The position numbers were made by a program, and so were the translations under genes. A stretch of 64,000 nt of DNA from Clostridia bacterium. Its GTDB lineage: Bacteria; Bacillota; Clostridia; TANB77; CAG-508. Numbering within the stretch: the stretch's first letter is position 1; the number at the start of each line of letters is the position of its first letter. The notes beneath the pieces are model-generated. The model was not told the DNA's origin. It saw nothing but the letters and a program-made list of their open reading frames with translations, and made no database searches. Positions 8,958 to 57,705 of the stretch are shown here, one piece after another. Location: positions 5,463 through 69,462 of the forward strand of contig JAFUYJ010000017.1 in assembly GCA_017470645.1 (NCBI GenBank), read 5' to 3'.

Positions 8958-9212
8958 ATGGATCAAGAAATAGATATTTGCTGCTGCAAAAAAAATAAAA
9001 AATCTAGAAAATGTTGTATAGATTTAATAATATTTATTTTGTCTATACTATTAGCCTTTGTTGTTGGTGTGCTTATTGGTGCTGTTACAGGCTTATTTGC
9101 TGCCTTAGGTTTAGGTGCTGTTATAGCTATCCTTGTAACTTTGGTTGTATTTCTTATTGTTAGAATTATAATGCTTGTTTGTGAAAAAGATAATAAAAAG
9201 AAATGTTGTTAA
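8958..9212 (+). CDS. Small membrane protein with cysteine clusters at both termini
   Basis: 84 aa: N-terminal ICCCKKNKKSRKCC, Gly/Ala/Val-rich hydrophobic core (about two TM spans), C-terminal KKKCC. RBS AGGAGG. Confidence 0.6.
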   Translation: MDQEIDICCCKKNKKSRKCCIDLIIFILSILLAFVVGVLIGAVTGLFAALGLGAVIAILVTLVVFLIVRIIMLVCEKDNKKKCC

Positions 9213-9221
9213 TAATAACTC

Positions 9222-9250
9222 TTGATTTTTTTTTTAATTCATGTTATCAT
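9222..9250 (+). promoter_or_regulatory. Promoter of the Ser T-box leader
   Basis: TTGATT, 17 nt, TATCAT. Confidence 0.45.
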
Positions 9251-9261
9251 TATAAACATAA

Positions 9262-9500
9262 TATGTAGCGTAACAAGAGACTAGTAGTAAACTCCCTTTT
9301 ATTCAGAGAGATTATGGTTGGTGAGAATAATCTAAAAAAGTTTATGAATCTACTCTTTAGCTTTTAGTGAAAACTAAACCTAGTAATGCAAGGTTACAAG
9401 CATTGTTAAGATATGAAATATGTTATATACAACAATTTCATAATTAAGGTGGCACCGCGATAATTATTCGTCCTTATGAATTTTCATAAGGACGTTTTTG
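9262..9500 (+). promoter_or_regulatory. T-box riboswitch leader, serine specifier (UCU)
   Basis: AGAGA bulge (9304-9309) and GGUGAGA distal loop (~9320). Specifier GAA-UCU-A has UCU at 9349-9351. T-box sequence AAUUAAGGUGGCACCGCG is at 9442-9459. Terminator CGTCCTTATGAA/TTCATAAGGACG plus T-run at 9469-9499. serS lies downstream. Confidence 0.85.
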
Positions 9501-25334: not shown

Positions 25335-25458
25335 AAAATTAATTAAAAGTAGTAAGATGTGCATTTTTGCGAATTAATCAAGACGAAGGTGTACGTATGT
25401 ACATCGAGGTTTGATTAATGAAGCGAAAATGTGCAGATTGCTGCTTTTAATTAATTTT
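25335..25458. repeat. 124-nt extended hairpin in the rplE-rpsN spacer (right arm overlaps last 8 nt of rplE)
   Basis: Arms AAAATTAATTAAAAGTAGTAAGATGTGCATTTTTGCG... / ...CGAAAATGTGCAGATTGCTGCTTTTAATTAATTTT. Apical stem GTGTAC-GTAT-GTACAT. A third direct copy of AAATTAATTAAAAGT is at 25300-25314. Confidence 0.7.
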
Positions 25459-50145: not shown

Positions 50146-50246
50146 ATTATTTACCTCGCTTTATTATATTTCTCCTTTTAGGAGTTCATTATTATTATAC
50201 TACAATTTTACATAAAATGCAAATTTTATGCCGGTTCTGATTTGGT

Positions 50247-50307
50247 CAGCCCAACCAATAAAAAAAATGTAGTACATTATAGTAACTACATTTTTTTGGT
50301 TGGGCTG
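50247..50307 (-). terminator. Long hairpin/terminator that includes the 3' acceptor strand of tRNA-Gln
   Basis: CAGCCCAACCAA (50247-50258) is the reverse complement of TTGGTTGGGCTG (50296-50307, the tRNA 3' end). Inner stem ATGTAGT/ACTACAT is flanked by A8/T7 runs. Confidence 0.6.
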
Positions 50308-50371
50308 GCTAGATTCGAACTAGCGCATGTCAGAGTCAAAGTCTGATGCCTTACCGCTTGGCTACAGCCCA
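50297..50371 (-). tRNA. tRNA-Gln (anticodon UUG), CCA encoded
   Basis: Hand fold: acceptor TGGGCTG/CAGCCCA, anticodon arm TCAGA-CTTTGAC-TCTGA, T arm GCTAG-TTCGAAT-CTAGC, discriminator A then CCA. Confidence 0.9.
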
Positions 50372-50390: not shown

Positions 50391-50468
50391 TGGGGTGGAA
50401 GATGGGTCTCGAACCCACGACCTCTGGGACCACAATCCAGCGCTCTAACCAACTGAGCTACATCCACC
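50391..50468 (-). tRNA. tRNA-His (anticodon GUG) with G-1, CCA encoded
   Basis: Hand fold: G-1 opposite C73, D arm GCTC-AGTTGGTTA-GAGC, anticodon loop TTGTGGT, T loop TTCGAGA. Irregular pairs U6.U67 and A31.C39 noted. Confidence 0.8.
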
Positions 50469-51681: not shown

Positions 51682-51874
51682 CAGTAGAGTAGTAAAAATG
51701 TAGTGCTTGGATTTATATATTAAATGTAGTACGAGCGCGCAGTTTGGCACGTTTTAGTATAACCGATAAAAGGAGCACCAAACCTAAACATTTATCACAC
51801 CCAAACTCCTTTTATCTTATACTAAAACCGGCCAGTAAGCTCACGGAATTTAATATATAAATCCAAGCACTACA
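51682..51874. repeat. Nested-hairpin element copy A (27-bp unique outer stem plus conserved core)
   Basis: Outer arms 51699-51725 / 51848-51874 are perfectly complementary. Core 51726-51847 is homologous to 55194-55319. GTAGAGTAG sits at 51684-51692. Confidence 0.8.
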
Positions 51875-51897
51875 CATATTTTTTGACGGTTATAACA

Positions 51898-53667
51898 TTA
51901 GCATAAAATAGCTTTAATTCTCCTAACCCCCGCAGAACTAGCTTCCTCTTTCTTAATCTTAAAAGTTCCCAATTCAGAAGTATTAGCCACATGAGGTCCA
52001 CCGCATATTTCTAATGATACATCCCCTATTTTATACACAGTAACAATATCAGGATATCTTTCAATAAATTCACATTCAGCCCCCATTTTTACCGCTTCTT
52101 CTTTTGGCATTTCTAACCTTTCAACAGGAATAGCCATTTTAATATATTCATTTACCAAATCCTCTGCTTGTTTCTTTTGCTCATCTGTCATTTTCTCATC
52201 TTGAGTAAAGTCAAATCTCATTCTCTCTGCTGTAATATTACTTCCTCTTTGATGAACATGCGCACCTAAAACAACTTTTAATGCAGCATTCAATAGATGT
52301 GTTGCAGTATGATATTTAGTTTCCATTTCGCCAGTTGATGCTAAACCACCTTTAAATTTTTGCTCTGAACCAGCTCTTGATTTAGCTTGATGTTCTTCAA
52401 ATTTTGCTTTGAATCCATCCATATCAACAGTTAAACCTTGCTCTTTTGCAAGTTCTTCTGTTAATTCAATTGGAAATCCATATGTATCATACAATTTAAA
52501 TGCTGTATCTTTATCTATTGAACCATCTTGAATATTTTTTGTAATTTTTTCAAACTCTCTTAGTCCTTTTTCCAAAGTTCTATTGAATTTTACTTTTTCA
52601 TTTTTTAGTGCATCTAATATAAATTGTGTATTTCTTTCTAATTCTTTGTAATAAGCTTTATACTCATTTATTACAATACTTGCCAATTCTTGTTCCCAAT
52701 TAGAATCAATTTGAATATCAATTTGTTTTGCATATCTTATCATTCTTCTAATTAATCTTCTAAGAATATACCCTTGGTCTTTATTTGATGGCATTATTTT
52801 AGCATCATCACCTAAAATAATAACAACTGCTCTTATGTGATCTGCTATAATTCTTATATATTTAGTATAGTTTTCATCATCATAATTCTTTCCAGAAACT
52901 TCTTCTATTTTAGCAATTATATCTTTCCAAATTGATGATTTGTAATTATCTGTTTGTCCTTCTAAAATTGCTGTAACTCTTTCTACACCCATTCCTGTAT
53001 CAACATTTTTATTTTTTAATGGTGTAAATGTTCCATCTGGATTATGCATATATTGCATAAATACGTTGTTCCAAATTTCAACCCAATTATCATTTTCTGG
53101 ATCGAATTTTTCAGGAACTGCTTCATTACTTCTCCAATAAAAAATTTCTGTATCTGAACCACAAGGTCCTGTAGCTTCCATGTTTGGCCACCAGTTATCA
53201 TCTTCACCTAAATATGCAATTCTTTCTTCTTTAATACCTTGTTCCATCCAAATTTTAGCTGCTTCACTATCAGCTGGAATCATATCATTTCCTCTAAATA
53301 CTGTTACAGCCAATCTTTCTATTGGTATATTTAAATGTTTTGTTAATAATTCAAAACTCCATTCAATTGATTCTTTTTTGAAGTAATCTCCTAAAGACCA
53401 GTTTCCAAGCATTTCAAAAAATGTATGGTGAGTTTTATCTCCAACTTCATCTAAGTCATTTGTTCTAAAACACTTTTGAACATCTGTTAATCTTGTTCCT
53501 TCTGGATGTGGTTCACCTTTTAAGTATGGAACCAATGGTTGCATTCCAGCTGTGTTAAATAATACTGTTGGGTCATTTTCTGGTATTACTGGTGCGCTTG
53601 GAATTATTTTATGTCCTTTACTTTCAAAAAATTTTAAATATGTATCTTTTAAATTTAAGCTTTCCAT
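51898..53667 (-). CDS. alaS: Alanine--tRNA ligase, short form (589 aa; no C-Ala domain, minimal editing core)
   Basis: N-terminal AlaRS blocks (FNTAGMQP, FFEMLGNWS, GMGVERV). C-terminal HTATHLL (HxxxH) and CGGPH (CxxxH). The protein ends ~30 aa later. ATG 53667 follows RBS GAAGGAG. Confidence 0.85.
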   Translation of the reverse strand: MESLNLKDTYLKFFESKGHKIIPSAPVIPENDPTVLFNTAGMQPLVPYLKGEPHPEGTRLTDVQKCFRTNDLDEVGDKTHHTFFEMLGNWSLGDYFKKESIEWSFELLTKHLNIPIERLAVTVFRGNDMIPADSEAAKIWMEQGIKEERIAYLGEDDNWWPNMEATGPCGSDTEIFYWRSNEAVPEKFDPENDNWVEIWNNVFMQYMHNPDGTFTPLKNKNVDTGMGVERVTAILEGQTDNYKSSIWKDIIAKIEEVSGKNYDDENYTKYIRIIADHIRAVVIILGDDAKIMPSNKDQGYILRRLIRRMIRYAKQIDIQIDSNWEQELASIVINEYKAYYKELERNTQFILDALKNEKVKFNRTLEKGLREFEKITKNIQDGSIDKDTAFKLYDTYGFPIELTEELAKEQGLTVDMDGFKAKFEEHQAKSRAGSEQKFKGGLASTGEMETKYHTATHLLNAALKVVLGAHVHQRGSNITAERMRFDFTQDEKMTDEQKKQAEDLVNEYIKMAIPVERLEMPKEEAVKMGAECEFIERYPDIVTVYKIGDVSLEICGGPHVANTSELGTFKIKKEEASSAGVRRIKAILC

Positions 53668-53761
53668 TATATCTCCTTCTTCAGTTGTGAGCGTAGTTAT
53701 ACGCATCTACCAACTCTTATTTTATCAATTAAAATCCTTTATAATTATATCTCAAAAATAT

Positions 53762-55144: not shown

Positions 55145-55358
55145 CTGTAGAGTAGCAGAAACATAAAAATACAAAAAGCAAATAATATTAACAACGAAGT
55201 ACGAGGCGCGCAGCTTGGCACGTTTTAGTATAACTGATAAAAGGAGCTCTAAGCCCGAACATTTATCGCACCCAAACTCCTTTTATCTTATACTAAAACC
55301 GGCCAGTAAGCCTACGTAGTGTTAATATTATTTGTTTTTTGTATTTTTATGTTTTTGC
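55145..55358. repeat. Nested-hairpin element copy B (39-bp unique outer stem plus conserved core)
   Basis: Outer arms 55155-55193 / 55320-55358 pair over 39 positions with only two G.T mispairs. Core is 55194-55319. GTAGAGTAG at 55147-55155. Confidence 0.8.
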
Positions 55359-55373
55359 GGCCACCTTCAACAA

Positions 55374-57640: not shown

Positions 57641-57705
57641 GTTTTAGGGACTACTTACAAAAAACATCAAGTCTTTGATATTTTTTGTAAGTAGTCCCTA
57701 AAAAC
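57641..57705 (+). terminator. Long (24-bp) perfect hairpin after the SH3b-SCP gene
   Basis: GTTTTAGGGACTACTTACAAAAAA, 16-nt loop, TTTTTTGTAAGTAGTCCCTAAAA(A)C. Confidence 0.6.

Follow-up and report, generated by a model that had tools for sequence, protein, structure and literature searches.

Two long hairpins in a Clostridia bacterium contig as probable old copies of a dispersed, MITE-like palindromic repeat

What is a long hairpin that occurs twice behind genes of the minus strand, each time with the same G+C-rich core but with different outer arms? The question is raised by a 64,000-nt stretch of DNA from a Clostridia bacterium (assembly GCA_017470645.1, contig JAFUYJ010000017.1, positions 5,463 to 69,462), which as a whole is designated the window. 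Copy A of the hairpin is located between alaS, the gene for alanyl-tRNA synthetase (AlaRS), and the HIT gene, and copy B is located behind the PGA_cap gene. A preliminary description had considered a structured RNA or giant terminator, an element entering the loops of terminator hairpins, and a site recognized as single-stranded DNA. The element is probably a non-autonomous transposable element resembling a miniature inverted-repeat transposable element (MITE), with the two hairpins being two old copies of one dispersed, palindromic, noncoding repeat. Three expectations of the preliminary description were borne out: the structure is non-random, it is kept through pairing-preserving changes, and a small mobile element is involved. 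Coordinates without an L-number are those of the window; L-numbers such as L002, L005, or L121 are labels of compared loci or contigs outside of it.

The two hairpins and their repeat family

The limits of the full element as determined by nhmmer are 51682 to 51892 for copy A and 55145 to 55369 for copy B, and the conserved termini GTAGAGTAGT and GACGG fall inside these limits. The outer arms of copy A, 51699 to 51725 and 51848 to 51874, are 27 nt long and 100% complementary, just as initially claimed, and the 39-nt arms of copy B, 55155 to 55193 and 55320 to 55358, are 95% complementary. The recurrence of the core was confirmed by an identity of 91% over a gap-free 111 nt (51735 to 51845 compared with 55206 to 55316). 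On whichever strand, both regions form one extended hairpin with −76 to −95 kcal/mol and z-scores of −9.3 to −13.3, and none of the shuffled sequences folded comparably. All helices of the fold that had been drawn by hand, GAGC/GCTC, TTGGC/GCCAG, and a 23-bp stem with a CC bulge and a loop of about 30 nt, are contained in the minimum-free-energy fold. The 9-mer GTAGAGTAG, noticed before outside of the left arm, has exact matches in the window solely at 51684 and 55147. Both copies indeed occupy the same kind of site past a minus-strand stop codon, with arms 15 to 23 nt and element termini 5 to 8 nt from the stop codons of alaS and PGA_cap.

The designation as a “two-copy” element holds for the window, with its density of 2 copies in 64 kb, but not for the family, of which dozens of further copies exist outside. 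Exact identity of the encoded HIT protein brought together ten metagenome contigs from rumen or gut, and copy A was present in 10 of 10. A metagenome scan with a 20-mer from the core led to eight further contigs. On GTDB, a window-specific 18-mer and 20-mer gave no real match, but a looser two-block pattern on the invariant core succeeded and found the family in only seven representative metagenome-assembled genomes (MAGs). At least 70 copies or fragments were obtained in total, 51 of them near full length, from 8 metagenome contigs plus 44 loci of the 7 GTDB MAGs. According to exact-pattern scans, there are at least 13 copies or fragments in CAMPBM01, 12 in CANPWE01 (Lapin-001), 8 in CAMEHU01, 7 each in CANQKT01 (Lapin-027) and CAKOWZ01 (Hadza), 5 in CANRGM01 (Lapin-022), and 4 in JAFXOY01 (sheep rumen), all of these numbers being lower bounds. 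Many contigs truly start or end within a copy (L114, L131, L150, L215, L219, L226, L011, L012, and L018), as expected of an assembly-breaking repeat. The genes flanking the metagenome copies are mutually unrelated housekeeping genes (YitT/radical-SAM, rnr/clpX, an rpsA-like S1 protein, recF/gyrB, TmcAL-like, and patatin).

The ends of the element were revealed by copies within one MAG, which are near-identical well past the arms and could be aligned. They are GTTACAGGTCAGCC ... GGCTGACCTGTAAC in CAMPBM01 and GTTACTGTTTAATA ... TATTAAACAGTAAC in Lapin-001 (L104). The 5′ end has the conserved TGTAGAGTAGT(C) and the 3′ end GACGGCT, in many copies followed by ..TGCAAAAG. The terminal inverted repeats of complete copies start with GTTAC, and the arms reach a length of 44 to 48 bp in some copies. 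Target-site duplications are AACTACT and GATTGCAC at two L101 copies, AATTTTT at L104, and GAATTT at L156. The most clear-cut evidence that the family transposed recently comes from a minimal copy of 161 bp at L182 (5299 to 5459), which is of the short isoform described below and possesses perfect 44-nt arms starting with GTTAC and an exact 8-bp duplication, TCTTTTGG, on both sides. Terminal inverted repeats together with duplications of 7 to 8 bp are the signature of staggered-cut, DDE-type transposition.

The copies of the family, 160 to 330 bp in size, are without coding capacity. No open reading frame (ORF) is conserved among them, and an ATG-led frame of 32 codons in the Lapin-001 copies stops after 2 to 4 codons in other subfamilies; a small ORF in the core was rejected because it is not conserved. 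The family displays properties of a MITE, being small and noncoding, with terminal inverted repeats, target-site duplications, and multiple dispersed copies. The copies of the window are assigned to it because they are homologous to complete copies with ends and duplications. With their right termini so close to the stop codons, there is no space for the missing ends, and, since the GTTAC ends and a duplication are also absent, both copies are read as old, terminally eroded insertions. The previous statement that a conserved inside and a variable-but-paired outside are the “opposite of a MITE” is not supported, as complete copies carry terminal inverted repeats and target-site duplications outside of the arms. 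It had been reached because two eroded copies of different subfamilies were the only ones visible.

Young copies would have been moved by a transposase encoded elsewhere and acting in trans, and the copies of the window, having lost their outer ends, would be immobile and fixed. A small palindromic element at L210 (1710 to 1790) has the same GTTACTGGTCAGCC end without the conserved core, so that the presumed transposase may act on more than a single kind of MITE. Resemblances to sigma-54 sites and to ISL3 or IS6 ends (TGGCAC; GGCTTATTGCAAAAG) were rejected by eye, the spacing or orientation being unfit.

The closest GTDB representative is MAG CAMEHU01 with an AlaRS amino acid identity of 93%, the next one reaches 77%, and further AlaRS relatives at about 65% are MAGs labeled as Bacilli, Tenericutes, or Erysipelotrichaceae. 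In the alaS neighborhoods of relatives with an AlaRS identity of at most 77% (L021 to L100), no copy was found by nhmmer or the covariance model, with the exception of a weak analogue at L079. This match (9163 to 9280, uncultured Clostridium MAG; 27.6 bits with the covariance model, E value of 0.005) has AT-rich palindromic arms, a G+C-rich asymmetric center, and an inner hairpin and may be a distant analogue. A blastn comparison with phage and plasmid collections gave no match to the element, and scans of IMG/VR with three patterns gave only chance matches in G+C-rich contigs plus one unrelated palindrome of a giant virus. The latter, on a giant-virus MAG contig (L002, 6617 to 6735), is near-perfect with arms of about 55 bp, is adjoined by a second palindrome, and contains GTTTTAGTATAA by chance. 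The element, initially suspected to be novel, matched no Rfam family: there was none at the gathering score for it in the window, none at an E value of ≤1 in L017 and L020, and between 51400 and 55600 only chance snoRNA and miRNA matches at E values of >1. A literature search by sequence strings gave chance primer matches only. The repeat family is previously undescribed in Rfam or the searched literature, and the element is confined to uncultured Bacillota of low G+C content from gut and rumen, which form a small clade. A complete T-box leader on the plus strand at 9262 to 9478 (Rfam RF00230, 108.9 bits) supports a Bacillota origin of the window.

The asymmetric core, its strand preference, and a possible RNA

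All copies have an asymmetric G+C-rich core in common, GGAGYAC..CGCGCAGTTTGGC ... GCCAGYAAG..CGGAAT, and 36 distinct cores were aligned and analyzed with RNAalifold. From the outside to the inside, the inner portion of the arms is followed by a 3×3 purine loop (GGA or GUA opposite GGA), helix P2 with 2 bp, a bulge, P3 with 4 bp, an invariant asymmetric loop with CGCGCAG opposite YAAG, P4 (TTGGC/GCCAG), P5 with about 12 bp, a 2-nt bulge of any sequence on the 5′ side, P6 with 10 to 11 bp, and a loop of about 30 nt, poor in G and with a weak AAAC.TTT center. P3 occurs as GAGC/GCTC, AGGC/GCCT, ACGC/GCGT, AAGC/GCTT, or AGAC/GTCT. A 23-bp inner stem with the 2-nt bulge is characteristic of the long isoform. 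The short isoform, present in L153, L182, L197, L217, and L219, has no P5 and P6 but an extended P4 (TTTGGCGC/GCGCCAG), which is capped by a C/T-rich loop of about 28 nt with a sequence conserved between MAGs (TCCCACYTAACGTCTTCCTC.AAAC).

On the plus strand of copy A, the motif GTAGAGTAG (51684 to 51692), which is at the left end of most family copies, and the left arm precede the 5′ side of the outer core (51726 to 51750). This part contains the 3×3 purine loop, P2, P3 as GAGC, the invariant CGCGCAG, and the P4 strand TTGGC, as assigned from the invariant and covarying columns of the alignment. The 5′ strand of the inner stem (51751 to 51775) has P5 as GTTTTAGTATAA, the bulge CC, and P6 as GATAAAAGGAG; P5 and P6 covary across subfamilies, and the 2-nt 5′ bulge is always present. 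The variable apical loop (51776 to 51805) is 81% identical to that of copy B. The strands P6′ and P5′ (51806 to 51828), defined by the fold and covariation, lead to the 3′ side of the outer core (51829 to 51847) with GCCAG (P4′), TAAG, GCTC (P3′), AC (P2′), and the GGA loop. Behind the right arm, the right terminus (51879 to 51892) carries a T-run and the GACGG motif of the family-conserved GACGGCT and ends 8 nt before the alaS stop codon (51898 to 51900). In copy B, also on the plus strand, the motif GTAGAGTAG is at 55147 to 55155, the core with outer core, P5/P6 inner stem, and apical loop is at 55194 to 55319 (covariance-model match at 55181 to 55332), and the right terminus is at 55359 to 55369, carrying GCGGCC as a degenerate GACGGCT and ending about 5 nt short of the PGA_cap stop codon (55374). 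The arms differ between copies A and B, but P5 and P6 are common to both.

Pair-keeping changes at both sides were found at 21 of the 42 pairs. Paired cells accounted for 97.7%, compared to 87.3% in shuffles and 38 to 43% with slid partners, and the covariation score was 0.354, compared to 0.158 in shuffles, 0 of 500 of which reached the observed value, and 0.04 to 0.075 with slid partners. This covariation proves a conserved palindromic architecture but not an RNA, because inverted-repeat arms may also covary via two protein-binding sites or by templated correction.

The two strands of the core differ. On the plus strand of the window, the one with GTAGAGTAG, the non-Watson-Crick positions in P5 and P6 are about 8 independent G·T versus 1 A·C and 3 to 4 G·A. 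When the loop was replaced by GAAA, the plus-strand core was more stable in 30 of 41 distinct copies, with a mean of −2.2 kcal/mol (Wilcoxon P value of 2e-4, with the copies being non-independent). The G at alignment column 32 (pair 32:137) stands opposite T in 20 sequences and opposite C in 16 and pairs on the plus strand only. All three findings suggest that it is the fold of the plus strand that counts. The covariance model gave 139 bits (plus) versus 45 bits (minus) for copy A and 136 bits versus 36.9 bits for copy B, a gap that partly reflects the construction of the model. Between co-directional flanking ORFs, about 20 copies are antisense and about 4 are sense, based on rough ORF calls and with some loci being orthologous, so that the better-folding strand is usually not the one transcribed with the neighboring genes. 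GC skew and gene orientation predict that the better-folding strand serves as the leading-strand template and is not the one exposed in lagging-strand synthesis.

Judging from these sequence patterns, the core might represent a new class of strand-specific, structured nucleic acid module, made of RNA or of single-stranded DNA in folded form, that is carried by the MITE and is read by a protein or RNA acting in trans. The inner hairpin and loop, specific to each genome, would then co-evolve with this partner, and fixed copies such as those of the window would be domesticated, for instance, as RNA-processing or regulatory sites among housekeeping genes. Such an addition to the MITE-like reading is conceivable but doubtful.

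It is improbable that the element is primarily a functional structured RNA, be it a cis-acting 3′ untranslated or intercistronic region or a small RNA from the GTAGAGTAG strand, with the copies being selected paralogs and mobility being incidental, or absent in the type found in the window. Such an RNA would agree with strong covariation in six helices, including the 4-bp helix between the asymmetric loops, with the retention of the purine-rich internal loops (GGA/GGA) and the position-conserved 2-nt bulge, with one strand folding better and scoring far higher, and with pair 32:137 being G·U in 20 and G-C in 16 sequences, on the plus strand only. The biased orientation toward the flanking genes, the short-isoform loop conserved across MAGs, and an identity of arms and outer core of 98% at the orthologous site described below, compared to 90% for alaS, also speak for it. 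However, mobility is shown by the terminal inverted repeats with target duplications and by assemblies breaking at copies; the favored strand runs antisense to those genes from which transcription would come; no promoter or terminator is conserved; and Rfam gave no match even at E values of ≤1 to 5. Perfect arms of 27 to 48 bp with almost no G·U pairs fit better with maintenance of a palindrome at the DNA level, and covariation of the arms could also result from a concerted change of two protein-binding sites.

The gene order on the minus strand is PGA_cap, copy B, a gene for an MtaB-like radical-SAM enzyme, the gene for a short AlaRS, copy A, HIT, and sortase. There is no room for a terminator between stop codon and element, and the copies are therefore probably transcribed with the alaS and PGA_cap mRNAs. 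The minus-strand RNA of a copy would be the 3′ end of the respective mRNA or an intercistronic segment that precedes HIT and the gene of the MtaB-like enzyme; the latter gene possesses its own TTGACA-17-TATAAT promoter directly past copy B. Transcribed copies would form imperfect hairpins of about 90 bp, which in all likelihood would be cleaved by RNase III or else stabilize or limit the 3′ end. A hairpin with a perfect duplex of 27 to 39 bp is a textbook RNase III substrate and a block to 3′ exonucleases. A role as a canonical, intrinsic terminator is not supported: a consensus scan found none at copy A or the complete copy in L193, and the T-run after the arms is not conserved, with L014 and L016 ending with ...TATATTGGAC. 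A promoter scan of the copies gave no excess over shuffles and no conserved promoter, and a strong-looking promoter in the loop of L193 does not occur in other subfamilies.

Between secG and rnr, L014 (2281 to 2330, minus strand) contains a normal intrinsic terminator followed by the element and the ribosome-binding site of rnr, which shows that the element is tolerated in 5′ leaders too. At the same site, L141 (2640 to 2720) contains the terminator alone, about 25 nt before the rnr start codon, and no element. Expression of rnr appears to depend on read-through in both cases.

The AlaRS encoded at 51898 to 53706 (minus strand) is a short form of 588 to 602 amino acids without the C-terminal C-Ala domain; short forms were also among the matches of the search for relatives that came from bacteria of the candidate phyla radiation, DPANN archaea, spirochaetes, and Lentisphaeria. 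Two tRNA genes, 50300 to 50371 and 50394 to 50467 (minus strand), are located downstream of the sortase gene, the first one being overlapped by imperfect inverted repeats at 50234 to 50320. Another long imperfect hairpin (25335 to 25458, about 124 nt, 36-nt arms with 81% complementarity) is unrelated to the element in sequence and may be a different repeat or a structured RNA.

Probable exchange of arms, inner hairpins, and loops

The arms had been described as locus-specific and without shared sequence, which does not hold for the family. The A-type arm of copy A (TGTAGTGCTTGGATTTATATATTAAAT) recurs at L017 (recF-gyrB), at L019 (next to a TmcAL-like gene), and at L121; the B-type arm of copy B resembles the arms of L013 to L016; and the blocks ATTATGTA and ATATATTAA are common to all arms of the family. 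L121, from CAMEHU01, is the orthologous copy between alaS and HIT. The nucleotide identity between the window and L121 is 89.7% in alaS, 87.7% in HIT, and about 76% in the spacer to HIT, while the arms plus outer core are identical by 98% (94/96), with differences that include one compensatory change, from GAGC/GCTC in the window to AAGC/GCTT. The inner hairpin (P5-P6-loop) is unalignable and has been replaced, with the architecture being unchanged.

In L005 to L008 and L010, the apical loop of copy A, about 36 nt, is swapped, and the arms and stems are identical to those of the window. At site B of L005, the inner 88 nt are absent together with the 5′ strand of P4, leaving no duplication and a 1-nt microhomology, as expected for a palindrome deletion, and about 6 clustered positions of the right arm differ from the right arm of copy B in the window but match the L013-type arm. 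The orthologous copies L119 (CAMPBM01) and L150 (Lapin-001), located before the same promoter, each possess the arms and inner stem typical of their own genome. The left end of L101_1224 and L104 is the reverse complement of the usual right end, and the palindrome extends over >75 nt per arm in copies of Hadza, RGIG6613, and some of CAMEHU01.

These mosaic patterns indicate a putative exchange of modules between copies plus a templated symmetrization of the arms. Inner hairpins, loops, and arm segments may have been exchanged by gene conversion, which would explain why copies A and B share the inner hairpin while the ortholog from another species differs. The near-perfect arms, 27 to 48 bp of Watson-Crick pairs with almost no G·U, may be kept by intra-strand template switching in quasi-palindromes, by selection on pairing, or by both. 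The persistence of the bulge and the asymmetric loops in the face of these processes is an argument for their being under selection.

Nested insertion, with a conserved hairpin element entering the loops of locus-specific hairpins or, as a variant, the 88-nt inner hairpin entering the loop of the short isoform, is quite unlikely. Site B of L005 is without exactly these 88 nt, short and long isoforms coexist within genomes, the inner hairpin of L121 is wholly different at the orthologous site, and long plain hairpins exist at other gene ends of the window, such as 57642 to 57703. The proposed insertion into pre-existing terminator loops is nevertheless not supported, since the arms are not locus-specific but recur at unrelated loci as subfamily-specific parts of the element, and the target duplications are situated outside of them. 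Moreover, a free-standing inner hairpin was not found, with scans of viral sequences and GTDB using its arms yielding chance matches only. The sole empty-looking site, site B of L005, is an internal deletion that also took half of P4 and left no duplication, not an ancestral plain hairpin.

Other comparisons with possibly empty sites, the window with L132 and L120 or L014 with L141, suffered from flanks that were too diverged or from broken synteny, and no insertion boundary was definable. The hairpin at 57642 to 57703 is near-perfect, with 29 bp and a 4-nt loop, and stands between a CAP/SH3 gene and the promoter of the genes for pyruvate:ferredoxin oxidoreductase. In the MAGs Lapin-022 and Lapin-027 (L132 and L120), a full element is located just upstream of the same conserved promoter (TTGACA..TATACT), but the upstream synteny with the window is broken, hence no clean empty site.

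Most unlikely is a recognition site in single-stranded DNA, similar to attC or to the hairpin ends of HUH/Y1 systems (REP/RAYT, IS200/IS605), that is folded on one strand and read by a recombinase. The strand-specific folding, the extrahelical bases at a fixed position, an inner stem more conserved in structure than in sequence, the orientation biased with respect to genes and replication, and a terminal motif containing GTAG would fit. Target duplications of 7 to 8 bp, on the other hand, are not made by HUH or tyrosine recombinases, the copies are solitary between housekeeping genes without cassette arrays, no integrase, RAYT, or TnpA was found within 5 kb on either side of the window copies or among the flanking ORFs, and the better-folding strand is the predicted leading-strand template instead of the lagging-exposed one. 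A REP/REPIN element was rejected because of the target duplications and because no HUH gene is near any copy, although the GTAGAGTAG motif is present, and an integron attC site was rejected because the copies are solitary between housekeeping genes and no integrase was found at the examined loci. A CRISPR repeat-spacer reading of GTTTTAG... was dismissed, as the units are inverted instead of direct, there is one “spacer” only, and no cas genes are nearby; no 11-mer of the loop of either copy, which might act like a guide, occurs elsewhere in the window.

Evaluation of the element as MITE-like needs to consider the points that weigh against it. The window copies themselves are without GTTAC ends and target duplication, and about 400 kb of fetched 8-kb blocks contained no transposase or autonomous element with matching ends and no multi-copy ORF. 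From a purely selfish MITE of the DDE type, one would not predict that an asymmetric core in its interior is so deeply conserved, and the strand asymmetry and the antisense bias of about 20:4 are not explained by simple DDE transposition. The arms being better conserved than coding sequence at the orthologous site suggests selection at the level of the host or the element that goes beyond this model. A role of the copies at the RNA level, finally, is something that we infer only.

Relation to known repeats and significance

In the way it works, the element resembles bacterial MITEs and palindromic intergenic repeats, and by homology it is to be placed with them. The Correia elements of Neisseria and the pneumococcal RUP elements are likewise small and noncoding, with inverted-repeat ends, short target duplications, and tens of intergenic copies near gene ends; they also form a long hairpin when transcribed and occur in subfamilies and internal-deletion variants. 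The element differs from them in having no similar sequence and no identified cognate insertion sequence; conservation is highest in an asymmetric, covarying core and not at the termini, and the window copies have lost the termini altogether. Similar to ERIC/IRU and REP/BIME/REPIN of proteobacteria, the copies are imperfect palindromes in transcribed intergenic regions for which the orientation with respect to transcription matters, the copies within a genome are more similar than orthologs between genomes, and size variants arise via insertions or deletions at fixed points. REP and REPIN sequences are thought to be moved by RAYT (HUH) transposases without target duplication. The family described here differs from them by duplications of 7 to 8 bp, by its low-G+C Bacillota hosts, and by unrelated sequences.

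With integron attC sites, the element shares a folded hairpin, there recognized by its structure, extrahelical bases, a variable terminal structure, and a location just after genes in a fixed orientation, but it is without integrase or cassette arrays, its hairpin is much longer, and it possesses inverted-repeat ends with duplications and a strongly conserved core sequence. Template-switch correction of quasi-palindromes, as in Escherichia coli, would explain arms that differ between subfamilies but are 95 to 100% self-complementary with almost no G·T intermediates, and also the outward growth of the palindrome in L101 and L104, where the two ends are reverse complements of each other. Here, this process is derived from sequence patterns, and the bulge and asymmetric loops, which it would tend to remove, are conserved nonetheless. 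What sets the family apart is its core, which is deeply conserved, covarying, and asymmetric and exists in two isoforms, plus the strand and orientation bias; otherwise, it is an ordinary repeat.

A covariance model, an alignment, and an anatomy now exist for an assembly-breaking repeat of a poorly known Bacillota clade from herbivore and human guts. The family clearly exemplifies how a palindromic repeat evolves in concert, with arms, inner hairpin, and loop being exchanged as separate modules, and it offers paired “young and mobile” and “old and fixed” copies. If the core is not functional, the practical value would be smaller, a caution against mistaking such hairpins for novel RNA genes or terminators. 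If the core is functional, it would be a structured module that was spread by a MITE and retained beside essential genes such as alaS, gyrB, and rnr.

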